Assembly (NCBI GenBank): GCA_903884535.1
Contig: CAISEZ010000090.1
Coordinates: 1,953 to 65,952, forward strand
DNA from: an uncultured Verrucomicrobia subdivision 3 bacterium
Lineage (GTDB): Bacteria > Verrucomicrobiota > Verrucomicrobiia > Limisphaerales > UBA11358
Length of the DNA: 64,000 nt
Direction: 5' to 3'
A model generated the notes under the pieces. The model was not told the origin of the DNA. It ran no database searches and worked only from the letters and a program-made list of their open reading frames with translations. Positions within the stretch are counted from its first letter, which is position 1. Each line of letters starts with the position of its first letter. Below, one piece after another: positions 4,130 through 62,130 of the stretch. A program made the position numbers and the translations under genes.

Positions 4130-4485
4130 GGATTGGATGTGTTTTGGTCAGTGGCGTGGTAAAAGGAAACAACAGTGACTAGCGCGAATGTGATCAAATC
4201 AATTTGTTTTTGGGTATTTGATTCATCATGACCCAAACCTGCCCTACTGTCTTGTCGGATGAAAAGAGGACAAGGAGGTTAACGCCCTCGAACATTTACG
4301 CGCAGCTTGGATTCTTGAGAAATTGCTTGGATTGGTTTTCACGAGTTAACCATAATATGGCAAAAAGTGCCGGTCACGATACCCCGACAAACGTATGGCA
4401 TGAATCGAATTATTTTGCCTGATTGCGGCATCCATCGTGCTTTGAGCCGACGATTGAATCCCGGCACAAGGGCTGGTCGAGCCAA

Positions 4486-6648
4486 TCAGGGTGATTTCAC
4501 TGCGGCCGCCGGGGCAAGATAGATTTGATGGTTCTGGAAAAGCCCAAGCCGGATCCTGATTTTGGCCACCAGCTGGGTTTGGCCGACGGTTTCAGCCAAC
4601 CCGATGGCCCGCTGGGCGTTGGTAATGGCGGCGGGAAATTGACCATTCGCAGCATAGGCCACAGCCAGCGTGTCGAGGTTGTTTGGCGAGACGTTGGTCG
4701 TCGTCGCACAGGCACGATTAGCCAAAATTAAAGCTAGTTTTGGATTGCCGCCCTCAGTCGCCGGGCGGGTGGCGAGCAGCCAGGCGAAATCATTTTGCGC
4801 CTCGACAAAATTGGGGGCGATTTGGAGCGCGCTTTGAAACATGGCCGCCGCTTCCGGGATTCGCCCCAGCTTGAAAAACCCCAAAGCCAACTGGTAGCGG
4901 GCGGCCGGATCCTCGGGCTTGAGTCGGAGTGATTCTTGAAAATGCGGCAGGGCTTCCACCGGTCGGGCGGTTTTGAGCAACGCCAGACCGAGGTTGTATT
5001 GGTCTTCGTATTCCTCCGGCATCAATTTCAAAACCGATTCAAAATGCGGGATGGCCTCGGCCGGCCGGCCGGTTTCCGCCAGGGCCAGGGCAATGGCGTG
5101 GTGCGCCTCGATCGAGTCCGGCTGCAATTCCAGCGCGCGGTCGCACAGGCGAAGTCCTTCATTCAGCCGGCCGAGCTGGACGAGTGCTTCGCCCAGCCCG
5201 GCATACGAGCCGGGATGTTCGGGGAAAATTTTGAGGGCCGCCCGGTAGTGGGTGATGGCCTCGGAAATTTTCCCATCATTCTTCACATCGCTCGCAATCC
5301 GATAGTGCGCCAGATAATTATCCCGCGTAACCGCCAGCGTGTGGCGAAACAAAGTTTCATCCGAACGCCAGTAGCCGATTTGTCGCCGGGTCAATACCGT
5401 GCAACAGGTCAGCAAAATGAAAACCAAAATTGCCACCGGCCAAATCGGCACGCGCCACGCCCGGGTCAATCCGTGAAACCCCCATACCACGGCCATCGCC
5501 AACCCGACCAATGGCAAATAGGTGTAACGATCCGCGATGGACTGGTCGCCGACATGCACCAGACCAATCACCGGCACCATCATGCCCACGAACCAAAACC
5601 AGCCCACGAGACAGAACGGCCAGCGTTTACGCGCCACCCAAACAAAAACCGAAATGCCGGCCAGCAACGTCACCGCAAGCATGATTTCTGCTGCCGCATA
5701 ATTATTTTCAAACGGGTAAAACACGCCGAGTCCGGCGGGCCAAATAATTTTACCAAGATACAACGCATAGGAAACAGTCGCGCCCTTGAGCCGATCGGCC
5801 ACCGTCAGAAAGCCGGCGACGGCGCCGGAACTTCCCTGCACAAAATAAGTCACCGTGCTGGTTGCAATCGCAAGTAGCAGAAAAGGAATTTTTCCAATCA
5901 GCAATGGCTTCAAATCAGAAATTGAAAACCGGAATTCGGGAATCCGTTTGAGTGGCCAGTAATCCAGCAATAATAAAACGAACGGCCACGTCACCAGCAT
6001 CGGCTTGCTCATCAAGCCGAGGGCGAAAAAAAACAAGGCTGCCAAGTAATTTCTGATTCCCGATTTCTGATTTCCAATTTTTGATTGGGCGTAACGCGCG
6101 TAAAAAATCAGCGAGAGCAATCCGAAGAAAGTGCTGAGAACATCTTTGCGTTCAGCGACCCACGCCACGGATTCCACGCGCAACGGGTGCAGTCCAAAAA
6201 ACAATGCGACCACGAGGCTGCGCCAGGTCGCGCCGGTCAGGTGACGCAGCGCGACGAACAGCAAAACCGCGTTGGCGGAATGCAGGACCACGCTGGTCAG
6301 GTGATGCCCCCACGGTTGCGCCCCGAATAATTGCCAGTCCAAAAGGTGCGAAAGCATGGTGAGCGGATGCCAGTTCGCGCCGACGATGCATGTCATGGCC
6401 CAGCGCAGCGAAGCAAAATTAAGTCCAGTGTGAACATTCGCGTTGGCGACCACATACAACGGGTCGTCCAGCATGATGAAATCGTTTTGCAGGGTTGGAA
6501 TAAAAACCCACATGACCACTAGGAACAACCCTGTGCCCAGCAGAAAAATATTCGGCACCGGCCAGGTGGCGGGCGCGGAACGCGAAGCTGGCGTCGGCGG
6601 CTCGGACTTCATGAAGGCTGATTTTGGTGCAAAGCGAAAGGGGTTCAA
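4486..6648 (-). CDS. TMTC-like GT-C fold glycosyltransferase: a multi-pass membrane domain fused to C-terminal TPR repeats
   Basis: 720 aa. Loop-1 acidic motif DFIMLDDPLYV. DUF1736-type motif HPLRVESVAWVAERKDVLSTFFGLLSLIFY. About 10 hydrophobic segments, followed by repeated TPR-like A-x-x-Y/F-x-x-A-L-x-x-x-P units. Confidence 0.8.
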   Translation of the reverse strand: MNPFRFAPKSAFMKSEPPTPASRSAPATWPVPNIFLLGTGLFLVVMWVFIPTLQNDFIMLDDPLYVVANANVHTGLNFASLRWAMTCIVGANWHPLTMLSHLLDWQLFGAQPWGHHLTSVVLHSANAVLLFVALRHLTGATWRSLVVALFFGLHPLRVESVAWVAERKDVLSTFFGLLSLIFYARYAQSKIGNQKSGIRNYLAALFFFALGLMSKPMLVTWPFVLLLLDYWPLKRIPEFRFSISDLKPLLIGKIPFLLLAIATSTVTYFVQGSSGAVAGFLTVADRLKGATVSYALYLGKIIWPAGLGVFYPFENNYAAAEIMLAVTLLAGISVFVWVARKRWPFCLVGWFWFVGMMVPVIGLVHVGDQSIADRYTYLPLVGLAMAVVWGFHGLTRAWRVPIWPVAILVFILLTCCTVLTRRQIGYWRSDETLFRHTLAVTRDNYLAHYRIASDVKNDGKISEAITHYRAALKIFPEHPGSYAGLGEALVQLGRLNEGLRLCDRALELQPDSIEAHHAIALALAETGRPAEAIPHFESVLKLMPEEYEDQYNLGLALLKTARPVEALPHFQESLRLKPEDPAARYQLALGFFKLGRIPEAAAMFQSALQIAPNFVEAQNDFAWLLATRPATEGGNPKLALILANRACATTTNVSPNNLDTLAVAYAANGQFPAAITNAQRAIGLAETVGQTQLVAKIRIRLGLFQNHQIYLAPAAAVKSP

Positions 6649-11646: not shown

Positions 11647-11701
11647 GGTAGGGCGGCGCTGCTGCGCCGCCGGGTTGGCTGACCGGCAGTTCAGCCCTAC
11701 C
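11647..11701. repeat. REP-like GC-rich nested palindrome (GGTAGGGC ... GGCGGCGC-TGCT-GCGCCGCC ... GGCTGACCGGCAG ... GCCCTACC)
   Basis: Inverted repeats read directly from the sequence. A related copy lies at 18302-18340. Located in a divergent intergenic region. Confidence 0.6.
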
Positions 11702-11812
11702 GGTTTGGCGTCTATATCAATGCTGATTGAAACAGCAATATCCTGCCATCTGATGATTTGACGGTGGCAGTTTATTTGCGAACATTGTCAAAGCGCTTGT
11801 CGCAAAAATAAA

Positions 11813-13060
11813 ATGCCCGCCACTCCTGAATTGCTTTGCGAATCCGCGCCGTGGCTGCGCCTGGCCGGATTGCTGCCGCAATGGCGGGAGATTCCGCTTT
11901 ACCGCGCGCGGCTGTCGCCGGAGATTCTTTCGCCGGAAGCGTTCGCCGGGTTGCCGTTCATCACCAAGCACGAACTGCGCGAAAACTTTCCCGCCAATTT
12001 TCTGCCGCCGGAAAAAAATCTGGAGTCGCTGCTTGCCCAGAATGCGGTGGAACTGGAATACACCTCCGGCACGTCGGACGAGCGCACGCCGGTGCTGTTC
12101 CGGCGCGGCTGGTGGGACGAGCAGGAAGCCCGCGCGCTGCGGCTGAATGAATTCGTGGCGGCTGCGCTGGCGGAAAACCCGGCCACGCGCCGGGCGACGC
12201 TGACGCCGCCGGTTTGCAACGGCCGCGCGTGTCCCACGGTTTGGGCGTCGCGCGAGCAGCGGATGATCGGCGCGACGGTTTATCTGAACCTGGCGCGGAT
12301 TCCGTTCACGCTGGCCGAGGCGGAACTGGCGCGGATGGCGCAGGAAATTTTGGTTTGGTCGCCGGTGTTTCTGGATGTGGACCCGGTGCATGCGGTGTGG
12401 TTCGCGCTGTATTGCGAACGGCACGGGCTGCGGTTTCCGTCGCTGCAATTTATTTTGGCCAGCTACGAGTTCACCAGCGCGGTGCACCGGCGGATTTTGC
12501 AGCGCGTGTTTGGCGTCCCGGTTTTGAACCTTTACGGCTCGACGGAAGCCGGCCACTTGCTGATGGAAGACACGCACGGAAAAATGGTGCCGAGCGAGGC
12601 GACGGCCTATTTTGAACTCGTGAACACGGATGCCGGCGGCGTAGGCGAACTGGTGGTGACCAGCTTGAGCAATGAGCTGATGCCGCTCATCCGCTATCGC
12701 ACCGGCGATCTGATGGCACGGCGCGAGGAAGTTTGCGGGACAAATTATATTCTCCACGGCCGGGCGCGGGACGCGTTGCGCGCCGGCGATGGCCGCCGCG
12801 TGACGACGCTGGAGGTGGACCGCTGTTTTGAAAATGTGGCGGGCATCGCGCATTACGAATTGCGCCAATCAGCGGACGGCGCGTGCGTTCTGCGTTTCGT
12901 GCCGGACGTGCGCGGGCCGGCGGTGGAAGATATTTCCGCGCTGGCCGTGCGGCTGGCCGCGCTGCTGCAATTGCCGGAAACCATCGCCGTGGAATCGGTG
13001 CCGATGGTGGTGCCGACGCATTCGGGAAAATTCCGGCTCACGGTGCCGGCCGCCGGTTGA
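11813..13060 (+). CDS. Adenylate-forming enzyme of the phenylacetate-CoA ligase / coenzyme F390 synthetase (CapK-like) family
   Basis: 415 aa. Motifs YTSGTSDERTPV (AMP-binding P-loop-like), LYGSTEAGHL and IRYRTGDL. Confidence 0.7.
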   Translation: MPATPELLCESAPWLRLAGLLPQWREIPLYRARLSPEILSPEAFAGLPFITKHELRENFPANFLPPEKNLESLLAQNAVELEYTSGTSDERTPVLFRRGWWDEQEARALRLNEFVAAALAENPATRRATLTPPVCNGRACPTVWASREQRMIGATVYLNLARIPFTLAEAELARMAQEILVWSPVFLDVDPVHAVWFALYCERHGLRFPSLQFILASYEFTSAVHRRILQRVFGVPVLNLYGSTEAGHLLMEDTHGKMVPSEATAYFELVNTDAGGVGELVVTSLSNELMPLIRYRTGDLMARREEVCGTNYILHGRARDALRAGDGRRVTTLEVDRCFENVAGIAHYELRQSADGACVLRFVPDVRGPAVEDISALAVRLAALLQLPETIAVESVPMVVPTHSGKFRLTVPAAG

Positions 13061-18278: not shown

Positions 18279-18301
18279 AAAATGGGGAGTGCGGCAGCAC
18301 C

Positions 18302-18340
18302 GCCCTACCGTTATTGGTAGGGCTGACCTGCCGGTCAGCC
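18302..18340. repeat. REP-like palindromic element (GCCCTACC-GTTATT-GGTAGGGC + TGACCTGCCGGTCA)
   Basis: Two adjacent perfect hairpins. Shares the GGTAGGGC and GGCTGACCnGCAG boxes with 11647-11701. Confidence 0.6.
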
Positions 18341-19265: not shown

Positions 19266-20867
19266 ATGAAACAATTTGATTTTCTCGTTCTCGGCAGCGG
19301 CATCGCGGGACTGACGTTCGCGTTGCAGGTTGCGCCGCGTGGGCGCGTGGCTATCGTCACGAAAAAGGATCGCGCGGAGTCGAACACCAATTACGCGCAG
19401 GGCGGCATCGCGTCGGTCACGAGCAAGGAAGATTCCTTCGAGTCGCACGTGCGCGACACGCTCACGGCGGGCGCGGGACTGTGCAAAGAAAATGTCGTCC
19501 GCACGATTGTCGAGGAAGGTCCGGCTCGCATCGCGGAACTGATCGCGCTCGGCATGAAATTTTCCGAGAGCGACGCACCGAGCGAGGACGGCGGCAAGCA
19601 GCTCGATCTTGGCCGCGAAGGCGGACATTCCGAACGTCGTATTTTGCACGCAAAAGATGTGACCGGCCGCGAGATCGAACGCGCGTTGTTGAATGCCGTT
19701 TCCAGGCAGCCGAACATCGAGATTTTCGAAAATCATCTGGCGATTGATTTGATCACCAGCCAGAAGCTCGGCTACGTCGGCGTAAATCATTGTCTCGGCG
19801 CATATGTGTTCGACAAGAAATCCGGGCGCGTGCAGATTTTTTGCGCGCCGGTGACGATTCTCGCGACGGGCGGCTGCGGCAAGGTTTATCTCTACACCAC
19901 GAATCCCGACATCGCGACCGGCGACGGCATCGCGATGGCGTATCGCGCCGGTGCGAGCATCGCGAACATGGAATTTGTCCAGTTTCATCCGACGTGTTTG
20001 TATCATCCGAAGGCGAAATCTTTTTTGATTTCCGAAGCCGTGCGCGGTGAAGGTGGTATTTTAAAAACGCTCGACGGCCACGAATTCATGGACGGCTGTC
20101 ATCCGCTGAAATCGCTGGCGCCGCGCGACATCGTGGCCCGGGCGATTGACAGCGAGATGAAAAAATCCGGCGCGGACTGCGTGCTGCTGGACATCACGCA
20201 CAAGCCGGCCAAATTCATCATCGAGCGGTTTCCAAATATTTATCAGACGTGTCTGCGCTACGGAATTGATATTACAAAAGAGCCGATTCCCGTGGTGCCG
20301 GCGGCGCATTACCAATGCGGCGGCGTGGTGACGAACATTGACGGCGAGACGGACATTGCGGGGCTGTTCGCCGTCGGCGAGGCGGCTTGCACGGGCTTGC
20401 ACGGCGCGAACCGGCTGGCAAGCAATTCACTTTTGGAAGCCATGGTCTGCGCGCACCGCGCGGCGGAAAAAATCCTTTTCCGGACACCGCCGAAAAATGG
20501 CTTGATCATTCCCGCCTGGCAATCCGGCCACGCGACGGACGCAGATGAAATGGTGGTCGTGTCGCATAACTGGGACGAGATCCGCCGGCTGATGTGGGAT
20601 TACGTCGGCATTGTCCGGACGAACAAGCGCCTTCAACGCGCGCAGAAACGCATCGCGAATCTTCAGGAGGAAATTCACGACTATTACTGGAATTTTAATT
20701 TGACCGCCGACTTGCTGGAACTGCGCAACATCGCCACGGTTGCCGAATTGATTGTGCGATGCGCGTTGCTGCGACCCGAAAGCCGCGGGCTGAATTACAA
20801 TCTGGATTATCCCGAGGCGAATCCCGAATGGGCGCAGCGCGACAGCGTGGTGCGGCGCGGCAATTAA
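19266..20867 (+). CDS. nadB: L-aspartate oxidase
   Basis: 533 aa. FAD-binding [12 protein letters not shown], plus the [13 protein letters not shown] and RSE-SRG motifs. Starts 1 nt after the panC stop. Confidence 0.95.
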
Positions 20868-32484: not shown

Positions 32485-33360
32485 TTAATTCACAAATTTC
32501 TCCTCTTTCAGCCAAAATAAACATTCATTCGCCCACGGATGCGGATTGGCGAACGGCGGTTTGTCTTTCAGTCCCATGCCGTGACCGCCTTTTTGATAAA
32601 TGTGCAACGCGAAAGGGACCTGATTTTTCCGCAGCGCTTCGGCAAAGAGCATCGTATTTTCCATCGGCACGGTTTTGTCCTCAAACGTTGTCCATAGAAA
32701 ACACGGCGGGGTATTGGTCGTCACCTGCAATTCATTGGAAAGCAGGTTGACCAATTCAGGTGACGGATTTTTGCCGAGCAGATTATCGTGCGAACCTTTG
32801 TGCGCGAATTCGCCCATTGAAATTACCGCATAGCAAAGGATGCCCAAATCTGGGCGCGAACTTTGCCGCTCAATCACATCGATCGCGTTCGTATCACCCG
32901 CATCAAAATGCGTCATCAGCGTTGCCGCCAGATGGCCGCCCGCCGAGGAACCCATGATGCCGACGCGCTGCGTATCAATGTTCCATGCGGCCGCGTGGGC
33001 GCGCACCAGGCGCACGGCGCGGGCGGCGTCATTGAGCATCGCCGGATGATGATAGCCGCTGGAACCCAGCCGGTATTTCAGGACAAAACAGGTGACGCCC
33101 TGCTGGTTCAGCCAGAGCGCGTAATCGTTGCCTTCGTGCGGTGCAAGGTGTGCGTAACCGCCGCCCGGACAAATCACCATGGCCGCACCGGTGGCGTTGG
33201 TCGCATCGGGAAAATACGGCGTGAGCGTGGGAATGTCGGTGGCGTTGGTGCCGAGCGCGCCAGGCGCGCCGTCGGGCCAGAGGGGAATGGCGGATTTCAT
33301 TTCAGCGCGGGATACAATGAGCGACAACAATAAAATTGCCGAGACAAAAATCGGTTTCAT
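32485..33360 (-). CDS. Secreted alpha/beta hydrolase (esterase/lipase, BD-FAE-like)
   Basis: Signal peptide MKPIFVSAILLLSLIVSRA. Oxyanion GGGY and nucleophile elbow GSSAGG. The ATG at 33360 is preferred over the track start at 33444. Confidence 0.75.
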   Translation of the reverse strand: MKPIFVSAILLLSLIVSRAEMKSAIPLWPDGAPGALGTNATDIPTLTPYFPDATNATGAAMVICPGGGYAHLAPHEGNDYALWLNQQGVTCFVLKYRLGSSGYHHPAMLNDAARAVRLVRAHAAAWNIDTQRVGIMGSSAGGHLAATLMTHFDAGDTNAIDVIERQSSRPDLGILCYAVISMGEFAHKGSHDNLLGKNPSPELVNLLSNELQVTTNTPPCFLWTTFEDKTVPMENTMLFAEALRKNQVPFALHIYQKGGHGMGLKDKPPFANPHPWANECLFWLKEEKFVN

Positions 33361-33457
33361 GACTTGGGTGGACGAATGCTCGCGGAATTCTAAACTCAAT
33401 TCAACCCCAACTTCGCCGCAGGTTTGACAGCGACCGATCCTCATCAGTTTTCAATCC

Positions 33458-33612
33458 GTGTTTGAACTTGTGTCAGATTACGCGTCCGCAGGCGATTGAG
33501 AAGTTAATCGCAGGTATTTTGGCCGGCGCGAAAAATCAGACGTTGCGCGGCGTCACCGGTTCAGGCAAGTCAGTCAGCGTCGCCAACGTCATCAAAAACA
33601 CCGGTAAGCCAC
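33458..33612 (+). pseudogene. uvrB: Frameshifted relic of the uvrB 5' end (codons 1 to ~56)
   Basis: GTGTTTGAACTTGTGTCAGATTACGCG... aligns with 37926-38095. It encodes FELVSDYA, then after a net 14-nt deletion PQAIEKLIAGILAGAKNQTLRGVTGSGKSVSVANVIKNTGKP. Similarity ends abruptly at 33612. Confidence 0.8.
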
Positions 33613-33656: not shown

Positions 33657-34679
33657 CTAAAACGTGAAACTCAATCCGGTTGTAGCATAGATGGCCTGGC
33701 TGAAATCTAACTCGACAGCGGAGCCGCCGGCGGACTGATTGACGGTATCGGTCATGGGTTGGTATTGCACACCGGCAAAAACACGCCAGGACGGCGACAG
33801 CGCATAACTGATTGCGCCGCGAACGTAGGGACCAAAAATCGCGTCGGTGCCGCCGCCGCTCCCCGAGCGGGTTTCGGAGATGCCACTGACAGTCAGCGTT
33901 TCCGAGTAGCGGAATTGGTTGTCCACCACGGCCACAGCCAGACCCGTTGCCAGTTCCAAATGCACTTTCTTGCCCGCCGGCAGTGTGAACACCGGGCCGA
34001 GGCGGAAACAATAGATGTCTGCATCGGTGCTGCGTGAACCGGATATCGAACCCGATGCGAGAGAAGTGGCACGAGTCGGGGTTGCCCCGAGCAGGGCACC
34101 GGGACCAGAGAAGGTTCCGCCGTATGGCGCAAAGGGCGGAATAACCGCGCCGAGCGGGAACGAGTCGGTGGTAACCGTCGCGCTCACCGGATGGGAGGAA
34201 TTATCCGTAACCTCCAGACGATTGTAGCCGAAAGCAAGTTCAACGGAGAAGTATCCCGGGCCGCAGTCAACCAGCCGCCGCAGGTAGGAAAGTTCAAAGC
34301 CGTAGTTCGGGTCATCACTTGCCGCCGGCGAGGACTCTTTATTCACCGACAGATTATGCATGTTGATGGTCGAGGCGGTTGCATTGTATTGCGCGTTGTT
34401 CTGGTAGCCCCAGTTCCATGTTTGATTACCGGAGTTTCCGCTCGAGTCCACGTGCACATAGCCATCCGGGTAATTGCGATCCACCAGCGGCCCCGCAGCC
34501 GGCGAGGTGGCCGGTGGAGACCCCTGCAAACGGAGAAACTTTGCCGTGACGTTAAAACCGAAACTCGGACCAAGCCGGAACTCGTTCATCGGAGTCTGGT
34601 CTGCTTCCGCGGCTGGCAAATTTGCGCCCGCAGTGAGAGCGATGATGGAACTGATGCTTTTCAGAAACAAAGTTTTCAT
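33657..34679 (-). CDS. Putative outer-membrane beta-barrel protein
   Basis: 340 aa with a signal peptide. Alternating-hydrophobic strand pattern, Gly/Ser/Thr-rich loops, and C-terminal ...TTGLSFTF with a terminal Phe. Confidence 0.55.
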   Translation of the reverse strand: MKTLFLKSISSIIALTAGANLPAAEADQTPMNEFRLGPSFGFNVTAKFLRLQGSPPATSPAAGPLVDRNYPDGYVHVDSSGNSGNQTWNWGYQNNAQYNATASTINMHNLSVNKESSPAASDDPNYGFELSYLRRLVDCGPGYFSVELAFGYNRLEVTDNSSHPVSATVTTDSFPLGAVIPPFAPYGGTFSGPGALLGATPTRATSLASGSISGSRSTDADIYCFRLGPVFTLPAGKKVHLELATGLAVAVVDNQFRYSETLTVSGISETRSGSGGGTDAIFGPYVRGAISYALSPSWRVFAGVQYQPMTDTVNQSAGGSAVELDFSQAIYATTGLSFTF

Positions 34680-34706: not shown

Positions 34707-37523
34707 TTATGGCAGTTCAACTACGCGGTAGTAGCGGTTGCCTGGGCCAGGCGGCGACACGGTCTTGGGCGGGCCGGCATCAATCCATTGTGTCCGGTTG
34801 GCCGCGGCTTTGATGGTCGGTGCGGCCGAAACCCAATTTATTAAATCTCCACTGTATTCGATTGCATAACTGCGACTGGCGGTGGAGTTGAACTCAACGA
34901 GGAAACTTCCACCCGGAAGCATTTGCGCCCGTGTGACCGCAATCCGAGTGCCGTTGTTCGTAGGTGGCGTCGCTGTGGTAGTGGATTCTAGGGTAACAGT
35001 GGGGGTGAACGTGGCGCGATTGGTGACATAATACTCGATGGTCAACGTGACGGAGCCGTTGGCGGGAATGGGGCCGTTGTATTGCACAAACGGGGTGCCG
35101 TTGTTCGTGCCTGTGGCGTTGTAGACCTGCACGCCCGCTGGCAGTGAAGTGATGAGCACTCGATACGGCGTGGTGTTTGGTGTGGCGCAGGTGTTGCCAA
35201 TCACGACACGCTGTTCGAGCAGCCCGGTCTGTGGATTGACGGTGGGCATGGATGTGGAGGTGATCGCCGTCTCGCACTCCACGGCGCCGGGCGGCCAGAT
35301 GCCTTCGGCCCACGGTCCCCAATCCGTGCCGTCGTTGGCGCGAACACGAATGTAATAAACGACCGGGCCCAAGTCCGGCCCGGTGTAGAGCGCGGATTGA
35401 TTGGTGCCGACGAACGGCGGCGGGTTCCACAAGTTGGTGCCGGTGGCGTCGGGGCCGCTCCAGACTTGGATTTCCGCTTGAGCTTGCGGCGCACCTTCCC
35501 TGTCAGCGTAGGTCCAGGTGATGGTGAACGAGTTCGTGTTCGTGCCGCCAGCCGCCACCGCGATCACGGGCACGACGGCGGGCGGAATATTCGTGGTCGA
35601 AGTGGTGAATGCGTATTCGGTCACGCGATCTCGCGGACAGTTCTGCCAGGAGATGTTGTTCTCGTCCGAATCTTGGACCTGCGCCAGAATACTCGCACCG
35701 GATCGGTAATCCCAAGCGTAGTTTAACGGCGCAGTAAACCCGTCGACCGTCATGGTCACGTAATCAATTCCTGCTGGTTCGTATTGATAATCTTGCCAGA
35801 CCTGGACGCGCAGTTCGCCATTGGGATCGGGGAGGAACAAGGAAAGATCGTATGTCTTCGTGGCTTCGGTGCCTGGATAGGTGAAGGAATCGCGCTGCAC
35901 CCAACTGCTGCCGTCCCAAGTATAGACCAGATAGCTACCGCCGCTGGGCAGATAATAACCGCGCGAGCGAAACACAAATTCGCGCGTTTTGCCCGTAGCC
36001 AGTGCTGGAACCGGAAACGAGATCGAGAATTTTTCGCCGCTGGAGATTTGAACCCGGTTGCCGTCCACGTTCGCCAGCGTGGCGAGGACGTTTTTCGAAC
36101 CAAACCAAGCCGCGCTCGGTTGCAATGTTGTAGCCGTGAACGCCGGCGCTGCCCCGGCATAAAGCGCCACGAAATCAATGGAGTGGTATTTGGTTGAGTG
36201 TGAAATCGAACGCAGGCGCACCTGCACCGCCTTGCCCGCCGTCAGATAGGGCTTCAAGTCGAACGCGTTGTAGGAATTTTCAAAGCGCGGCAGCAACCGT
36301 CCGCGCTCGATCCAGTTTCCGCCGCTGTCGCGGGTTTCGACCACCACGGCCGGAGGGCTGGTGAACGGAATCTCCGGGCCGGTGCCAATGATGAAGCCTT
36401 TCACCTTGAGCACCAGCACCGCCGCTTGCGAAAGGTCCACGATTCCGAAATCCAAACTGACCGTGTCGCCATGATACGCCGCATGCCCGACATCGTCGTT
36501 GGCAATAACCAACGGCAGGACATTTTCAGATTGGCCCGAAACCGCGGAGTTGGGTGCCCGCAAGCTGGCCGGCCGGTAACCAGTGAGGTTGCCCGCGCCG
36601 TCCGGTGCTACCGCCACATCCGCCGCGTGATCCACGGCTACGAGCGTCGCGTCGTCCGTGAAGGAGGTCTCGCTGTCCCGCTCCTGCACTTCGAGCCAAT
36701 AGCTTCCGTTCAGTGGCACCAGCGGTTTTTGCAGCCGGTAAGCATCGGTGTATTCAGCACTCGCTCCACGCGCAACGGAATAGATGTCATTGTCCGCCAT
36801 GAAGTCACTCCCATTCCACGGAGCCACCCACGGGCAGGAGGCGGACGAGGACGGGTCTTCCCACGCTTCCATGGTGAACATTTTGGCGGTGCCCGATTTC
36901 ACGTTCTTGGTAACGGCGATGTCATCCACATACACCCCCGACAGGCTGCCGCTGCCGCCGCAATAGAATGAAGGCGAAGAACTGAAGACCACCGCGCGAA
37001 AACGCAGGTAGAGCGGCATGCCGGAGTAGGTTGGATCCAGCGAAAACTCGTAATGCTTCCACGACGGGGCGTTGGCGCCATAGTGCTCCATGTTATTATA
37101 AAATTGAATCAGTGATTGCCATTCGGTGCGATTCGTGGAGACGAAGAATTCACCCCGGTCGCGCATACCATCCAGATCAACGTAGGCCCAGAAACGGACG
37201 CGCAGAATCTCGTTGCTGGAGATGGTGGGAAGCGAGATTGGCAGCGAAACAATGGACCCATCACACGTTCTTGGAATCGGCCCGTCCAGCACCGTGCCCC
37301 AGCACTTGGTTCCCGCGTGGGCGGCGTGCGGTCCCACCGAGCTGGGCGAAGGCGTGCCCCACGCCCAACCGGCGGTATTGTCCGTTTCCAATATTCCGTA
37401 ACTGCCATCGTCGGTTTCAAATCCCTGCGAGTAGATGATGACTTCCTGTGCTGGGGCAGTGAGTGACAGGATCGAGAAAACGGCTGCGATACCGCATCCG
37501 ACTATTAAACAATTGGTTTTCAT
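34707..37523 (-). CDS. Large secreted protein of unknown function (N-terminal MAM/jelly-roll-like module, FN3-like module, C-terminal beta-sandwich)
   Basis: 938 aa. Signal peptide MKTNCLIVGCGIAAVFSILSLTAPAQE. GWAWGTPS...HAGTKCWGT...GVYVDDIAV pattern. Ends with ...RYYRVVELP. Confidence 0.75.
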   Translation of the reverse strand: MKTNCLIVGCGIAAVFSILSLTAPAQEVIIYSQGFETDDGSYGILETDNTAGWAWGTPSPSSVGPHAAHAGTKCWGTVLDGPIPRTCDGSIVSLPISLPTISSNEILRVRFWAYVDLDGMRDRGEFFVSTNRTEWQSLIQFYNNMEHYGANAPSWKHYEFSLDPTYSGMPLYLRFRAVVFSSSPSFYCGGSGSLSGVYVDDIAVTKNVKSGTAKMFTMEAWEDPSSSASCPWVAPWNGSDFMADNDIYSVARGASAEYTDAYRLQKPLVPLNGSYWLEVQERDSETSFTDDATLVAVDHAADVAVAPDGAGNLTGYRPASLRAPNSAVSGQSENVLPLVIANDDVGHAAYHGDTVSLDFGIVDLSQAAVLVLKVKGFIIGTGPEIPFTSPPAVVVETRDSGGNWIERGRLLPRFENSYNAFDLKPYLTAGKAVQVRLRSISHSTKYHSIDFVALYAGAAPAFTATTLQPSAAWFGSKNVLATLANVDGNRVQISSGEKFSISFPVPALATGKTREFVFRSRGYYLPSGGSYLVYTWDGSSWVQRDSFTYPGTEATKTYDLSLFLPDPNGELRVQVWQDYQYEPAGIDYVTMTVDGFTAPLNYAWDYRSGASILAQVQDSDENNISWQNCPRDRVTEYAFTTSTTNIPPAVVPVIAVAAGGTNTNSFTITWTYADREGAPQAQAEIQVWSGPDATGTNLWNPPPFVGTNQSALYTGPDLGPVVYYIRVRANDGTDWGPWAEGIWPPGAVECETAITSTSMPTVNPQTGLLEQRVVIGNTCATPNTTPYRVLITSLPAGVQVYNATGTNNGTPFVQYNGPIPANGSVTLTIEYYVTNRATFTPTVTLESTTTATPPTNNGTRIAVTRAQMLPGGSFLVEFNSTASRSYAIEYSGDLINWVSAAPTIKAAANRTQWIDAGPPKTVSPPGPGNRYYRVVELP

Positions 37524-37776: not shown

Positions 37777-37848
37777 GGTGGGGCGAGCGTCCGGCGAGCC
37801 GCTCAAACCCAAGACTCCCGACGGTTCGCGCGGACGCCCACCCCGCCG
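37777..37848. repeat. GC-rich palindromic element sharing the 'CGCTCAAAC' box with the elements at 39150 and 62065
   Basis: GGTGGGGCGAGCGTCCGGCGAGCCGCTCAAACC ... CGACGGTTCGCGCGGACGCCCACCCCGCC, an imperfect inverted repeat, 78 nt upstream of the uvrB ATG. Confidence 0.55.
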
Positions 37849-37925: not shown

Positions 37926-40070
37926 ATGTTTGAACTTGTTTCCGAATACGCGCCCGCCGGTGACCAGCCGCAGGCGATTGAAAAATTAACCGCCGGCATT
38001 TTGACCGGCGTGAAAAACCAGACGCTGCGTGGCGTCACCGGTTCCGGCAAGACGTTCACCGTCGCTAACGTCATCAAAAATACCGGCAAGCCCACGCTCG
38101 TCATTTCGCACAACAAAACCCTGGCCGCGCAACTTTACGCCGAGTTCAAAAGTTTTTTCCCAAAAAACGCCGTCGAATACTTCGTCAGCTATTTCGATTT
38201 TTACCAGCCCGAGGCCTACATTCCGCGCACCGACACGTTCATCGAAAAAGATTCCAGCATCAACGAGGAGATCGAGCGGCTGCGGCTCTCGACCATGAGT
38301 TCGCTCTTCTCGCGCCGCGATGTGATTGTCGTTGCGAGCGTCTCTTGCATTTACGGTATCGGCAGCAAGGAAGATTACGCGGTGATGGTTTTGCCCATCA
38401 CCGTCGGCGGCGCAATGTCGCGCGAGCAGTTGTTGTCGCGCCTGGTGGATCTGCAATACACGCGCAACGACATCGCGTTCGAGCGCGGCCAGTTTCGCGT
38501 GCGCGGCGACACGGTGGAAATCTGTCCCGCCGGCCGCGAGGACGCGCTGCGCGTGGAATTTTTCGGCGAGGACATCGAACGCCTCACGCGCTTCGAGCCG
38601 CTGACGGGAAATAAGATTGAATCGCTCGTCGCCGAAACCATTTTTCCGGCAAAGCAATTCGTGACCACCGGCGACAAATTAATAAATGCCATCCTCGGCA
38701 TTCGCGAGGAATTGCGCGAACGCATCGTTTTTTTTGAGAAGCACGGCAAGCTGCTGGAAGCCCAGCGCATCAAGATGCGCACGGAATACGATCTGGAAAT
38801 GATGGAACAAATGGGCTTCTGTTCCGGCATCGAAAATTATTCGCGCCACATCGCCGCGCGCAAGCCGGGTTCGCAGCCGAACACGCTGTTTGATTTTTTC
38901 CCGAAAGATTATCTGCTCGTCGTGGACGAATCGCACGTCACCGTTTCGCAGATCGGCGGCATGTATGAAGGCGACAAATCGCGCAAAACGGTTTTGGTGG
39001 ATCACGGCTTCCGGCTGCCGAGCGCGCTGGACAACCGGCCGATGAATTTTCTGGAATTTCAGTCCATGCAAAACCAGACGATTTACGTCAGCGCCACGCC
39101 CTCGCTGCGCGAAATCGAATGGTCGCGGCAAAGTGCCGTCCAAAATTCTGGTGGCAGCGGACGTGAGTCCGCTCAAACCTTAAAATCGGAAATTGAAAAT
39201 CGGAAGTCGGAAATGAGTCAGAGCCGACTCACGTCGGCTGCTACCGAACTGCCCGGCGTCGTGGATCTCGTCGTGCGGCCGACCGGCTTGATTGATCCGA
39301 AAGTCACCATCAAGCCGCTGAAAGGTCAGATTGACGATTTGATGGAAGAGGTCCGCAAGCGCGGCGACAAAAAGGAACGCACACTGGTCACGACCTTGAC
39401 CAAGCGCACGGCGGAAGAACTCACGGATTATCTGCGCGACATTGGCATCCGCGTTCAGTATTTGCACAGCGACATTGACGCGATTGAGCGCGTGGAAATC
39501 CTGCGCTCGCTGCGCAAGGGCGAGTTTGACGTGCTCGTCGGCATCAATCTGTTGCGCGAAGGATTGGATTTGCCAGAAGTTTCGCTCGTCGCAATTTTGG
39601 ACGCGGACAAGGAAGGTTTTCTGCGCAGCGAAACGAGTTTGATCCAGACCGCTGGTCGCGCGGCGCGGCATTTGAACGGCGAGGTGATTCTTTACGCCGA
39701 CGTGATGACGGACAGCATCAAAAAATTTCTCGCCATCACGGAATATCGGCGCAAGCGGCAGATCGCTTATAATCTTGAACACCACATCACGCCGCGCAGC
39801 GTCATTCGCGCGGTCGAGGAAAGTCTGGCGGTTTATCGGACGACGCGTGAAGAAGCTGACGCCGTTTTGCACGACGCCAAAATGGACGTGGACGTGACCG
39901 AGACCATCCGCGAACTCGAAGGTGAAATGCTCGTGGCCGCCGAGGATTTGAAATTTGAAAAAGCCGCGCTGCTCCGCGACCAGATCAAAGAACTCAAACA
40001 CATGATTGACGGCACGAAATCCGAAGCGAAGCCGGTGAGCTATCGGAAATCAAAACGAGCGAGGAAATAA
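37926..40070 (+). CDS. uvrB: Excinuclease ABC subunit B
   Basis: 714 aa. Motifs GVTGSGKTFT (Walker A), DESH, RPTGLIDP and GRAARH, plus a C-terminal UVR domain (FEKAALLRDQIKELK). Contains an in-frame repeat-element insertion. Confidence 0.97.
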   Translation: MFELVSEYAPAGDQPQAIEKLTAGILTGVKNQTLRGVTGSGKTFTVANVIKNTGKPTLVISHNKTLAAQLYAEFKSFFPKNAVEYFVSYFDFYQPEAYIPRTDTFIEKDSSINEEIERLRLSTMSSLFSRRDVIVVASVSCIYGIGSKEDYAVMVLPITVGGAMSREQLLSRLVDLQYTRNDIAFERGQFRVRGDTVEICPAGREDALRVEFFGEDIERLTRFEPLTGNKIESLVAETIFPAKQFVTTGDKLINAILGIREELRERIVFFEKHGKLLEAQRIKMRTEYDLEMMEQMGFCSGIENYSRHIAARKPGSQPNTLFDFFPKDYLLVVDESHVTVSQIGGMYEGDKSRKTVLVDHGFRLPSALDNRPMNFLEFQSMQNQTIYVSATPSLREIEWSRQSAVQNSGGSGRESAQTLKSEIENRKSEMSQSRLTSAATELPGVVDLVVRPTGLIDPKVTIKPLKGQIDDLMEEVRKRGDKKERTLVTTLTKRTAEELTDYLRDIGIRVQYLHSDIDAIERVEILRSLRKGEFDVLVGINLLREGLDLPEVSLVAILDADKEGFLRSETSLIQTAGRAARHLNGEVILYADVMTDSIKKFLAITEYRRKRQIAYNLEHHITPRSVIRAVEESLAVYRTTREEADAVLHDAKMDVDVTETIRELEGEMLVAAEDLKFEKAALLRDQIKELKHMIDGTKSEAKPVSYRKSKRARK
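39150..39245. repeat. 96-nt palindromic (MITE/REP-like) element inserted in frame within uvrB, with a central 7-nt-periodic array
   Basis: Left arm GGTGGCAGCGGACGTGAGTCCGCTCAAAC. Centre AAATCGG AAATTGA AAATCGG AAGTCGG AAATGAG. Right arm GAGCCGACTCACGTCGGCTGCTACC, the near reverse complement of the left arm. Confidence 0.7.
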
Positions 40071-61241: not shown

Positions 61242-62096
61242 GTGCAAAGTGAGAATTTTTCCGATGCCGTGCTGGTCATCCTCGGCCACGGCACGACGCT
61301 GAACGCCGAATCCGCCGCGCCGGTTTTTCAGCACGCGGCGGAGTTGCGGCGTCGGAAGATTTTCGCCGCCGTCCGCGAAGCCTTTTGGAAGCAAGAACCG
61401 CACATCAAAACCGTGCTGGCGGAAATTGCCGCGCCGCGCGTCTTCATCGTGCCGTTTTTCATCAGCGAAGGCTATTTCAGCACCGAAATCATTCCGCAGG
61501 AACTTGGCTTCAGCTTTCCCTCCAACTTAAAATTAAAAACTCAAAATTCAGAACTGCATTACTGCCGCCCGGTCGGTTCGCACGACTCGATGACGAAAGT
61601 GATTCTCGCCCGCGCGGAGGAAGTCGTGAAACAATTTCCCTTTCCGCGTGCGCCAAAAAAATCGGAAACGACGCTGCTCATCGCGGGTCACGGCACCGGG
61701 CGCAACGCCAAGTCCCGAAAGGCCGTCGAACGGCAAGTGGAATTGATTCGCGCGCTAAATATTTTCGCCGAGGTCGGCGCGGTGTTCATGGAGGAAGCGC
61801 CGTTCATCAAGGGCTGTCACGCGGCGGTGAACACCAAAAACATCATCGTCGTGCCGTTTTTCATCAGCGACGGTTTGCACGCGGTCGAGGATATTCCGGT
61901 GCTGCTCGGTGAGCCGGATCGGTTCGTGAAAGAACGGCTTGCCGCCGGGCAGCCGACATGGCGTAATCCGACCGAGCGCGATGGCAAACGAATCTGGTAT
62001 TCCGCATCCGTCGGCACCGAGCCGCTGCTGGCCGACGTGATTTTTGAACGCGTCAAAGAAGCATGTGGCAGCCGAAGTGAGTCCGCTCAAACTTAA
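61242..62096 (+). CDS. cbiX: Two-domain CbiX/SirB-type chelatase-like protein
   Basis: 284 aa. Two repeats of the (V/L)LI(L/A)GHGT......P....VVPFFIS(E/D)G pattern. The last 10 codons and the stop lie in a repeat element. Confidence 0.7.
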   Translation: MQSENFSDAVLVILGHGTTLNAESAAPVFQHAAELRRRKIFAAVREAFWKQEPHIKTVLAEIAAPRVFIVPFFISEGYFSTEIIPQELGFSFPSNLKLKTQNSELHYCRPVGSHDSMTKVILARAEEVVKQFPFPRAPKKSETTLLIAGHGTGRNAKSRKAVERQVELIRALNIFAEVGAVFMEEAPFIKGCHAAVNTKNIIVVPFFISDGLHAVEDIPVLLGEPDRFVKERLAAGQPTWRNPTERDGKRIWYSASVGTEPLLADVIFERVKEACGSRSESAQT

Positions 62097-62130
62097 ATTT
62101 AAAGTGAGCGAACTCACGTTCGCTGCTACG
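62065..62130. repeat. 66-nt palindromic element of the same family as the uvrB insertion. It supplies the C-terminus and stop of the CbiX-like gene.
   Basis: GTGGCAGCCGAAGTGAGTCCGCTCAAAC-TTAAATTTAAA-GTGAGCGAACTCACGTTCGCTGCTACG. The left arm is nearly identical to 39151-39178. Confidence 0.7.

Follow-up and report, generated by a model that had tools for sequence, protein, structure and literature searches.

The uvrB gene of an uncultured Verrucomicrobia subdivision 3 bacterium harbours in frame, where the predicted protein has the linker joining its two helicase domains, an inverted pair of GTAG-type REP units that resembles a REPIN, and in related bacteria the same linker site is either empty or filled by REP families unrelated to this one. 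We consider it likely that the element is non-autonomous and resides in UvrB as a tolerated in-frame passenger, and that the slot has been shaped both by the turnover of REP units and by recombination.

Results

An inverted REP dimer in the uvrB reading frame

The features found in the window, which is the whole stretch of 64,000 nt that was analysed, are collected in Table 1. UvrB chains in the PDB match the product of the host frame at E = 1e-246, and the frame stays open through the insert GGSGRESAQTLKSEIENRKSEMSQSRLTSAAT between the VSATP and VVRPTG blocks, with the sequence and placement that the original prediction had described; one peptide predicted from the frame to span the insert is SEIENRKSEMSQSR. 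The gene had also been called essential, an epithet that has to be dropped: uvrB is a conserved repair gene and is non-essential for the growth of E. coli.

Table 1. Coordinates of the REP element, its host gene and related features in the window
Feature	Positions	Strand	Remark
uvrB CDS	37926..40070	+	ORF; 714 aa; host gene of the REP insert
Lineage-specific linker expansion, R401-G444 (RQSAVQNSG...SAATELPG)	39126..39257	+	relative to empty-site relatives
Left REP unit GTGGCAGCGGACGTGAGTCCGCTC	39151..39174	+	degenerate GTAG tag (GTGG), 7-bp stem, GTGA loop
Dimer spacer, 46 nt	39175..39220	+	imperfect AAATCGG-like heptamer tract at 39182-39214
Right REP unit, minus-strand reading GTAGCAGCCGACGTGAGTCGGCTC	39221..39244	-	GTAG tag
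Second family copy, 65-nt dimer with 17-nt spacer	62065..62129	+	arm-pattern matches
Palindrome from another REP family, GGTGGGGCGAGCGTCC...GGACGCCCACCCC	37777..37847		intergenic, upstream of uvrB

The element consists of two 24-nt units in inverted orientation. Each folds alone into a stem of 7 bp capped by a GTGA loop, and the two stems differ by a compensatory C/G swap in the right unit. With up to three mismatches allowed, the arm pattern matches four times in the window (39153 and 62067, and on the minus strand 39222 and 62107) and never in shuffled sequence, and the segment 39145-39250, folded as single-stranded DNA, reaches -24.1 kcal/mol against a shuffle mean of -12.1 (z = -5.3; 0 of 200 shuffles fold as well); the pattern and the fold both agree with the earlier description of inverted arms that are hairpins in their own right. 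Conservation across 163 arms of the family ends exactly at the GTAG tags, and in the lake metagenomes the loose ends of other copies begin at 39149/50 and 39244/5. The predicted place, 39150-39245, is therefore upheld and the predicted length of 96 nt is not, the unit GTGG...CTAC occupying 39151-39244, or 94 nt; the larger figure equals this unit plus one flanking base per side. No outward extension of the palindrome was seen beyond the element, and direct flank repeats of 2-8 nt occurred around the 70 sampled dimers at control frequency, which indicates that there is no target-site duplication.

The five phased heptamers that had been read in the spacer are present in about that number, but they are imperfect, TRF giving 4.7 copies at 73% matches. 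The relative L001, 95% identical, has a spacer shorter by 21 nt, exactly three heptamer units. Heptamer phase variation within the source population was considered and rejected, four lake metagenome runs containing no indels, at a resolution at which contigs hide rare variants.

A dispersed family with in-frame copies in many genes

The near-identical left arm that had been noticed at 62065 does mark a second copy of the family, which overlaps the end of a CbiX-like gene (61242-62096), encodes the last residues of its product (GSRSESAQT) together with the TAA stop, and ends 12 nt ahead of the ATG of the downstream gene. The palindrome at 37777, regarded earlier as a related element, belongs instead to a distinct REP family (GGTGGGGCGAGC...), which fills the uvrB slot in the relatives L004 and L207. 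Outside the window, a metagenome pattern scan found at least 120 stretches that match the family, and in source-like lake metagenomes the arms are covered at a depth of 146-279 and the flanks at ~17, an 8-16-fold difference, with other organisms adding to the arm depth. These copies and depth spikes, together with the second copy in the window, bear out the view of a dispersed repeat. Further copies in the same lake metagenomes have short spacers unrelated to that of the uvrB copy, and the family is widespread in Verrucomicrobia of the subdivision-3/Limisphaerales kind from freshwater, peat and soil. In the 163 arms the letters G, T, A and G of the tag are each conserved at 96-99%, and tag and stem overall at 90-100%. 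Mobilisation by a RAYT-type transposase would be expected for such an element; a crude HUH-motif scan for RAYT in the window and about 90 loci returned no convincing candidate.

Among the matches listed, 95 elements were sampled, a non-random set on short contigs, of which 70 were dimers, most often 70 nt long, and 18 lay in frame within Pfam-verified genes. The verified hosts include HsdR, NadE, OGG, a DEAD helicase, TrpC, UvrA, PurL, IspG, AlaRS, ValRS, Dus, HemL and others, with no obvious over-representation of repair genes among the sampled hosts. That the element might have evolved to be translatable, an alternative raised earlier, is contradicted by the number of open frames per family dimer, 2.44 of 6 compared with 2.46 in shuffled copies, and by the two stops that the family arm has in one forward frame; survival of an in-frame minority is enough to explain the in-frame copies. 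The element probably persists in uvrB because the linker tolerates extra residues and only stop-free, frame-keeping insertions survive. The length from GTAG to CTAC was a multiple of 3 in 0 of 17 verified intragenic dimers versus 13 of 53 others (p = 0.03), and simple insertion of the GTAG..CTAC unit does not explain the missing lengths.

A predicted inter-domain excursion within a lineage-specific expansion

Alignments of UvrB with PDB chains are interrupted at query residues 403/445. The AlphaFold model, built from a diverse alignment since close homologues alone gave an unusable pLDDT of 44, has a pLDDT of 83.5 overall and below 50 at residues 409-439, and superimposes on solved UvrB structures with a TM of 0.93-0.96. 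The alignments and the model place the insert in the inter-domain linker, where it had been expected, and support its reading as a low-confidence excursion between the two helicase domains, the predicted fold being otherwise normal.

We propose that the insert is expressed, in RNA and in protein, as a floppy excursion on the surface between the RecA-like domains. In the metatranscriptomes listed, from which the organism of the window is itself absent, the matches came from conserved parts of relatives' genes and from REP arms, and a freshwater contig of a relative's uvrB was found in which WS continues directly into a KASATRPLT-type insert, a reading to which DNA carry-over may contribute. It is imaginable that a very stable intragenic hairpin stalls ribosomes or diverts them, and the segment would be missing from the mature protein if the RNA were processed at the hairpin, if ribosomes bypassed it or if the protein were spliced. 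We hold any such removal to be very improbable, for the relative's RNA contig reads across the 5′ junction, there are neither intein motifs nor a take-off/landing codon pair with a stop, and all 110 occupied alleles, of many unrelated families, recovered by a search for intact proteins, are stop-free and in frame, a state that would be needless if the segment were skipped.

The original prediction had correctly put some 14 residues between the two blocks of an ordinary UvrB: among the matches listed, which cover 80 species of many phyla, the span SATP..RPTG measures 24-25 aa in 76. The segment is absent from 78 of these 80 species, two of the 80 loci belonging to close relatives, and the site is empty in some close relatives, so that alignment with orthologs establishes the insertion as lineage-specific. 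Both points on which the original prediction could have failed, a homologous segment in the UvrB of other phyla and the want of further copies, came out in its favour, for other phyla lack the segment and the window holds a second copy. In the empty-site relatives UvrB is 673 aa long, versus 714 aa here, and three codons (QKK or QGR) occupy the place of R401-G444, which brings the net gain to 41 codons instead of the 32 proposed. As the expansion replaces only three codons, the element sits within a larger lineage-specific expansion.

The uvrB slot is hypervariable

Among 120 UvrB relatives the linker site was empty in ten close relatives and otherwise held REP units of at least eight unrelated families, the insert states comprising eight multi-member classes and seven singletons besides the empties. 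The absence of stops and frameshifts among the occupied alleles was seen through a protein search, which yields intact proteins alone and would miss broken uvrB alleles. Insert peptides are 14-55 aa long and show no relatedness between families, and wherever an insert was inspected in its DNA sequence it proved to be a strong hairpin belonging to a different family. All occupied alleles have the expansion RQSA...E-x-PG in common, so the single landing event first envisaged gives way to an element inside an older expansion, in a slot with many alternative occupants. On the weakly resolved UvrB tree the insert state takes 70 changes, compared with a minimum of 15 and with 82.8 for shuffled labels; the REP family in the slot is nearly independent of that tree. 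The AU test rejects monophyly for the empties (p = 2e-8), and well-supported branches force 7-10 changes each in the classes F01, F04 and F03. A loop of prmC shows the same cassette pattern and is a second such slot.

Three strains or loci, L209, L210 and L211, carry three unrelated cassettes between flanks that differ at 0-1 positions over ~250 nt upstream and ~115 nt downstream. Arms are multi-copy and Logan contigs break at them, so assemblers might have fused uvrB flanks to repeat copies from elsewhere; this we regard as exceedingly improbable. Exact contigs cover flank, arm and spacer in three runs, jumping via shared arms swaps spacers within one family and cannot create different families, and the different cassettes derive from samples and sources independent of one another, long MAG contigs at NCBI among them.

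How different families came to occupy one slot may be approached from two sides. It is conceivable, if rather unlikely, that lodged REP hairpins become a target for RAYTs or further REPs and that families replace one another in situ, repeatedly and independently, as a site-specific exchange of cassettes with no need of allelic recombination. The occupation of one uvrB slot by so many families and the second slot in prmC are in keeping with this, as are the two REP families in tandem in L005, the three-unit intermediate in L207 and the fact that 4 of 7 occupied loci also hold the slot family at another place in the locus; REPs are moreover known as insertion targets and tend to cluster (PMC3733652). 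L205 and L208 have a clade-specific RQDA flank in common and different cassette families, which would need crossovers at the cassette edge under recombination and fits in-situ replacement equally. Replacement in situ is opposed by the extent of the swapped segment, which exceeds the GTAG..CTAC unit and carries non-REP junction codons common to each allele class across clades (xQNxx in family A, x-I/T-N/D-R in F07), whence a single origin per allele class. The cassette of L210 has four synonymous differences in its RQSA codons, matching the same-class allele L213, next to 250 nt of perfect identity, a pattern that cutting at the tags would not yield. Furthermore, the three-unit complex alleles P0007, P0016 and P0050 recur nearly unchanged in separate clades, and the empty, ancestral-like alleles are dispersed over the tree, so that insertion alone is insufficient. 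These junction details point to old allele classes that recombination over short tracts would have reshuffled, with REP turnover acting as well. A point against recombination is that its tracts, at only about 100 nt, would be short. REP turnover is supported by the tandem families of L005 and by the allele P0097, an internal deletion of P0052 with the remaining protein identical.

Between the window and L205 the arms of the uvrB REP differ at 3 of 48 positions while fourfold sites are just 70% identical, and we conclude that the preservation of the arms is not due to neutrality but to another cause, for example homogenisation, selection acting on the hairpin or a replacement in the recent past. 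Such conservation far beyond neutral sites would also be expected if the insert were functional, its hairpin tuning the expression or stability of uvrB, or its loop or heptamer slippage modulating or switching excision repair and so giving mutator-like variants. The retention of a strong hairpin in every occupied allele, the recurrence of repair hosts (UvrA, UvrB, OGG and helicases; also PMC3733652) and the spacer difference of exactly three units from L001 lie in the same direction. We nevertheless judge a function improbable, as the peptides are unrelated and vary severalfold in length, empties are common in close relatives, the verified hosts are mostly ordinary metabolic enzymes and tRNA synthetases, and the heptamers, imperfect here and showing no length variants in the four lake metagenomes, are entirely missing from other alleles.

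Discussion

We propose that the insert is a tolerated passenger rather than a functional module, its loop being presumably neutral, and that the slot predates its present occupant. First, an ancestral event would have made the expansion bounded by RQSA and E-x-PG, after which many REP families could have occupied its interior. Two processes may then have acted on it. One would be the birth and death of REPs in an unconstrained stretch, through insertion beside existing hairpins and palindrome-mediated deletion; the other would be short-tract homologous recombination between uvrB alleles, moving whole cassettes across strains and species. The nearly invariant flanks make recombination between uvrB alleles easy. 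The data themselves show the REP architecture and the dispersal of the element, its in-frame residence in many genes, the lineage specificity, the hypervariable site and the identical flanks of different cassettes; RAYT mobilisation, a neutral loop and the balance between turnover and recombination are inferred.

More tentatively, and with a confidence that stops a little short of even, we suggest that the UvrB linker and at least one PrmC loop are multi-allelic REP-cassette loci, in which at least eight old, unrelated alleles and the ancestral empty state coexist across a family-level radiation of Verrucomicrobia, transferred from strain to strain and species to species in very short recombination tracts that perhaps arise from hairpin breakage. 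If so, a housekeeping gene would display trans-specific polymorphism in selfish DNA, and a natural recorder of REP turnover and cross-species recombination may be at hand. If recombination is the right explanation, very short conversion tracts pass from one species to another among uncultured bacteria of freshwater and soil.

As a single case, selfish palindromic DNA read as protein is rare and has been documented in Rickettsia in 2000 and in Opitutus and others in 2013. The uvrB case shows how much the inter-domain linker of a conserved helicase tolerates, and for annotators and phylogeneticists it means that such loops are non-orthologous sequence. The slot also offers a tractable, PCR-sized marker for the birth, death and exchange of REPs and REPINs in natural populations.

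Comparison with known systems

The element has the marks of a REP: a short stem-loop, a GTAG/GTRG tag, inverted pairing and no target-site duplication. A classical MITE was rejected as an identity, target-site duplication being absent and the arms being self-folding REP units, and so was an intein or a translational bypass, the frame being open with no stop, the peptides varying among alleles and the Pfam domains of homologues being those of UvrB alone.

Enterobacterial BIMEs and species-specific REPs offer a parallel, in that orthologous intergenic sites carry different lineage-specific palindromic units in related species. Those sites are intergenic, whereas the uvrB site lies inside a reading frame and every state must stay in frame. 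For RPE elements, we know of no multi-family cassette site. REPINs, in which two inverted REPs form a larger hairpin (REPIN-RAYT system; Bertels and Rainey, 2011, PMC3116915; PMC5581495), are similar in this architecture, in having subfamilies with covarying stems and in lacking target duplication, and they persist as populations of tens to hundreds per lineage; they are described as extragenic, and the uvrB element is intragenic.

RPE-1 and its relatives (Ogata et al., 2000, cited in PMC3733652 and PMC1779305) are in-frame selfish palindromes in Rickettsia genes. As these citing papers portray them, they are like the uvrB element in being palindromic, in frame in functional proteins, read as surface segments and intragenic to a large extent, and differ in their length of ~100-150 bp or CGTC tags and in their obligate intracellular alphaproteobacterial host, and they have no sequence relationship to the uvrB element. 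In-frame residence of the RPE kind was found in UvrB and 17 other Pfam-verified hosts. The element thus acts in the manner of an RPE, but membership in the RPE family was rejected, the tag being GTAG/GTGG and the consensus unrelated to the CGTC families (PMC3733652).

The closest precedent is the survey of intragenic in-frame GTAG REPs and dimers by Di Nocera, De Gregorio and Rocco (2013, BMC Genomics 14:522; PMC3733652). GTAG REPs form stem-loops of 20-40 bp that end in a GTAG tag, which in the verrucomicrobium Opitutus terrae is often GTGG; they pair into inverted dimers with 20-100 bp spacers, and copies in frame within genes encode 20-30 residues (PMC3733652). O. terrae has the most in-gene copies, in hosts that include uvrA, uvrB, uvrD, polA and recBCD; in recB, different REPs lie at about the same site in two Xanthomonas species, and functional effects of REPs in repair genes were speculated upon (PMC3733652). 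The in-frame insertion of REPs in repair genes of Verrucomicrobia is therefore already known (PMC3733652), and the peptides listed for GTAG-19 of O. terrae, GTGVSPV and HGRDARAT (PMC3733652), recur here as one class of uvrB insert. That survey includes neither the present REP family (GTAGCAGCSGACGTGAGTCSGCTC) nor this host lineage, and the uvrB linker site is unreported in it (PMC3733652). What is new here is the scale on which one site has been reused, with at least eight families and empties in 120 near-identical orthologues, and the polymorphism between strains whose flanks are identical.

A REP dimer lies in frame inside uvrB

The residues encoded between the helicase motif VSATP and VVRPTG of the window UvrB are SLREIEWSRQSAVQNSGGSGRESAQTLKSEIENRKSEMSQSRLTSAATELPGVVDL, and, as in the original prediction, a palindromic element lies there in frame, with a left hairpin unit GTGGCAGCGGACGTGAGTCCGCTC and a right unit, on the opposite strand, GTAGCAGCCGACGTGAGTCGGCTC. 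Each unit has a 7-bp stem and a GTGA loop, the stems of the two units differ by a compensated C/G swap, and the region folds as single-stranded DNA at -24.1 kcal/mol (z = -5.3). The phased heptamers described at its centre were recovered by TRF as 4.7 imperfect copies. The claim that the repeat is dispersed was borne out as well, as the arm pattern, at ≤3 mismatches, matches four times in the window and never in 100 shuffles, and a second dimer of the family ends an upstream CbiX-like gene (Table), coding its final nine residues, GSRSESAQT, in the frame used in UvrB, and its TAA stop, and terminating 12 nt 5′ of the next gene's ATG. The element thought related at 37777 is indeed a palindrome, but it belongs to a different REP family. 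Contigs of four lake-water metagenomes match the uvrB insert exactly; depth there rises from ~17 to 146-279 over the two arms only, and the other copies part from the window sequence exactly at 39149/50 and 39244/5.

When metagenome contigs were scanned for GTRGCAGCSRAMGTGAGTYSGCTC, at least 120 stretches matched, and the 80 loci retrieved contain, among the matches listed, 95 elements; dimers account for 70 of these and are most often 70 nt long. Across 163 aligned arms, the GTAG tag and stem are 90-100% conserved, and conservation reaches background level 1-2 bases beyond the tag. Neither a target-site duplication nor an outward continuation of the palindrome was found at the family dimers, and a crude motif scan of the loci compared gave no convincing candidate for the cognate RAYT transposase, a further defining feature. 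With its short stem-loops, GTAG-type tags, inverted pairing of units and lack of a target-site duplication, the uvrB element matches the definitions of GTAG-tagged REPs (Di Nocera et al., 2013; PMC3733652) and of REP dimers, or REPINs (Bertels and Rainey, 2011; PMC3116915).

Elsewhere in the window, two heptamer-type arrays in inverted orientation (AAATCAG AAATTGA AAACCGG AATTCGG ...) are akin to the spacer of the uvrB element, and the 110-nt segment between them is itself repeated. A third GTAG REP family (GTAGGGCTGACCTGCCGGTCAGCC / GTAGGGCGGCGCTGCTGCGCCGCC) is represented by two dimers, of which the first lies directly 3′ of the stop codon of a minus-strand gene. Upon membership testing, the uvrB element fell outside both the Rickettsia RPE families and the MITEs.

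Table. Coordinates of the repeats and genes discussed
Sequence	Feature	Positions	Strand	Remark
Window	Heptamer-type arrays, inverted pair	5913-5944, 6055-6086		
Window	Repeat of inter-array segment	9791-9876		
Window	Third-family REP dimers	11648-11700, 18292-18340		
Window	Gene with dimer 11648-11700 just downstream of its stop	11717-12868	minus	
Window	Abhydrolase/COesterase gene	32485-33444	minus	
Window	Decayed uvrB copy	33448-33610		
Window	Secreted or outer-membrane-like genes	33657-34679, 34707-37523	minus	
Window	uvrB CDS	37926-40070		714 aa UvrB
Window	REP dimer in uvrB	39151-39244		two inverted 24-nt units
Window	CbiX-like gene	61242-62096		
Window	Second copy of the uvrB dimer family	62065-62129		17-nt spacer
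L004	prmC	19595-20542		
L004	REP segment in prmC	20166-20237		before NPPY of release-factor methyltransferase
L005	uvrB	2771-4978		
L116	trpC	919-1998	minus	
L127	uvrA fragment	3-1799	minus	

The insertion is lineage-specific and predicted to leave the interdomain linker

Alignment with orthologs confirmed that the insertion is lineage-specific. Among the matches listed, the SATP..RPTG span has 24-25 residues in 76 of 80 species-representative genomes from many phyla, and the only long span among those 80 belongs to L005, a locus of a more distant Verrucomicrobiota genome, whose UvrB (72% identity) carries 85 residues at the same site, one REP-derived segment (SSRREEAHS...SLLTSAAT) being followed in tandem by a different one (APLTPSLSPSGGE...). 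In ten close relatives (87-89% identical, 673 aa) the site is empty and reads WS-QKK/QGR-V(V/A)EL, which is ancestral-like since it lines up with S-x-G-R-I-I-E of other phyla. Structure mapping agreed with the proposed loop between helicase domains: the insert is predicted to be an excursion from the linker joining the two RecA-like domains, because PDB UvrB chains cover query residues 2-403 and 445-694 and leave it unmatched, and because an AlphaFold model on a diverse alignment (pLDDT 83.5), otherwise UvrB-like (TM 0.93-0.96, rmsd 2.0-2.6 Å to solved structures), falls below pLDDT 50 only at 409-439 and in two C-terminal linkers. Weak evidence that the insert is kept in mRNA comes from a relative, whose uvrB is represented in a freshwater metatranscriptome by a contig that passes from ...WS straight to a KASATRPLT-type insert.

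Upstream, the start of uvrB (~160 nt) is present as a second, decayed copy with ~85% identity and an internal deletion, which adjoins the abhydrolase/COesterase gene. In relatives that gene lies next to uvrB on its upstream side; here a 4.3-kb block, in which two genes are secreted or outer-membrane-like, parts it from the intact uvrB. The copy and the block look like what an insertion or an allele replacement at the uvrB 5′ end would leave behind.

The uvrB slot is hypervariable

In each of the best 120 UvrB homologues (79-96% identical, from Verrucomicrobia of the subdivision-3 / Limisphaerales kind), the site is either empty or filled by 14-55 inserted residues between R-Q-S-A (variants KASA, RASA, RQDA) and (E-I)-P-G. 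These inserts cluster into eight multi-member classes and seven singletons, and the class peptides (SGRES...SRLTSAAT; VGRASPRAE...GASPHQ; GTGVSPV...GQDARAT; PLTRPSATLSP...GEGRGEG; others) are recognisable translations of different REP families, the third class having peptides that the supplement of the 2013 paper (PMC3733652) lists under O. terrae GTAG-19. As DNA, all examined alleles form a strong hairpin whose outer ends are GTAG or GTGG, and each belongs to a different family. On a UvrB tree with the insert columns left out, the class label changes 70 times (minimum possible 15; 82.8 with shuffled labels), the well-supported branches alone force 7-10 changes per class, and the AU test rejects a monophyletic grouping of the empties (p = 2e-8). 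Four families occupy four genomes whose uvrB is 79-87% identical at fourfold sites, and three occupy three contigs, from three samples, with a common gene order and 96-100% identity in most 300-nt bins. In run X4, a ~90% identical relative from the same lake system skips 131 nt over window 39124-39256 and has 8 other letters in their place; its uvrB site is of the empty type, so occupied and empty alleles co-occur in one habitat.

How the patchwork may arise

Each insert class probably arose once, because class-specific non-REP junction codons (x-Q-N-x-x before the tag in family A, x-I/T-N/D-R in class F07) are common to distant UvrB clades. The loci L209, L210 and L211 are identical over ~250 nt upstream and ~115 nt downstream of the slot, and in L210 every one of the four RQSA codons has a different third base (CGG CAG AGT GCA vs CGC CAA AGC GCC/T), a pattern also present in L213, another F07 allele; the L210 cassette would thus have brought its own flanking codons, as expected of a short gene-conversion tract from another uvrB allele. 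Junction codons and L210 codons together argue against clean cut-and-paste at the REP tags as the sole process. In-situ turnover also appears to take place, judging from loci L205 and L208, which both have clade-specific RQDA codons and differ in family, from the tandem state in L005 and the three-unit state in L207, and from the protein P0097, an internal deletion of the otherwise identical P0052. In this pair and in P0011/P0078 vs P0061, UvrBs that are otherwise near-identical or identical, the insert has lost a stretch between repeats of GEG or similar motifs, which points to recent palindrome-mediated shrinkage. Of 7 occupied loci, 4 contain the slot's family at another position too, and several families coexist within genomes.

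We conclude that turnover and allelic recombination probably yield the patchwork jointly: REPs would be born and die within an unconstrained in-frame stretch, alongside recombination between uvrB alleles. Conservation of the arms fits neither process neatly, since between the window and L205 they differ at 3 of 48 positions where fourfold sites are only 70% identical, and they would be homogenised, selected or renewed.

Residence inside genes

Open stretches of at least 80 codons flank 28 of the 95 sampled elements on both sides, and for 17 of these Pfam domains on both sides mark real genes (HsdR, NAD synthetase, OGG glycosylase, sugar kinase, DEAD/DUF3516 helicase, TrpC, UvrA, PNP-family enzyme, PurL, acyl-CoA ligase, GH127 hydrolase, IspG, AlaRS, Dus, ValRS, HemL, RlaP); an 18th verified copy lies in the UvrB of a relative. 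Therefore, about one fifth of the sampled copies would be read as protein, an approximate fraction from a non-random sample of short contigs. The original prediction offered either selection on insertions or an element evolved to be translatable, and only the former stood. Dimers have on average 2.44 open frames of six vs 2.46 in shuffled copies, one forward frame of the arm has two stops, and intragenic copies use several frames (SSGRESA.../...SRLTSAAT, VAADVSPL.../...ADSRRLL, ...PTDVGCY); an in-frame, stop-free minority surviving at permissive sites explains the intragenic pattern. For family A (loci L085-L164), none of the 17 Pfam-verified intragenic dimers has a GTAG..CTAC length divisible by three (11 being 1 and 6 being 2 mod 3), vs 13 of 53 among the remaining dimers (Fisher p = 0.03). 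This would mean that the unit inserted is other than the exact tag-to-tag stretch, or else that copies within genes arrive by replacement instead of simple insertion.

In L004, a relative's locus, the family that occupies this relative's own uvrB slot also lies in frame in prmC, in another reading frame and directly 5′ of the NPPY motif. About three quarters of 120 PrmC homologues carry this family there (GWGERPREP...GSPGVSPHQ in most relatives), the remainder include at least six further families, and the site is empty in four proteins, making prmC a second hypervariable in-frame REP slot. Further contigs encode a UvrA fragment (L127) with two in-frame REP-derived segments, one a half-unit and the other a complete dimer that precedes the second Walker B region, and a TrpC (L116) with segments of two different REP families. 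Therefore, the uvrB slot is one example of a lineage-wide habit.

Discussion

The reading of a dispersed, in-frame and lineage-specific insertion holds, but not that of a single simple landing, as the slot houses many families, nor that of evolved translatability. Natural REP dynamics and short-tract recombination could be gauged with such a multi-allelic slot.

Rickettsia RPEs are the classical precedent for palindromes read in frame, but the uvrB element is not one of them. Closer are the intragenic GTAG and CGTC REPs surveyed by Di Nocera et al. (2013; PMC3733652). Their count of GTAG ones was highest in the verrucomicrobium Opitutus terrae, the inserts span 20-30 residues, the hosts include uvrA, uvrB, uvrD, polA and recBCD, and recB of two Xanthomonas species carries different REPs at nearly one position. 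That survey speculated that intragenic REPs are a targeted modulation of repair, which finds no support here, as repair genes are not clearly preferred over large multi-domain enzymes in general in our sample. New in this work are the sequence family, the uvrB linker as host site, and how widely and how fast cassettes diversify at one codon slot.
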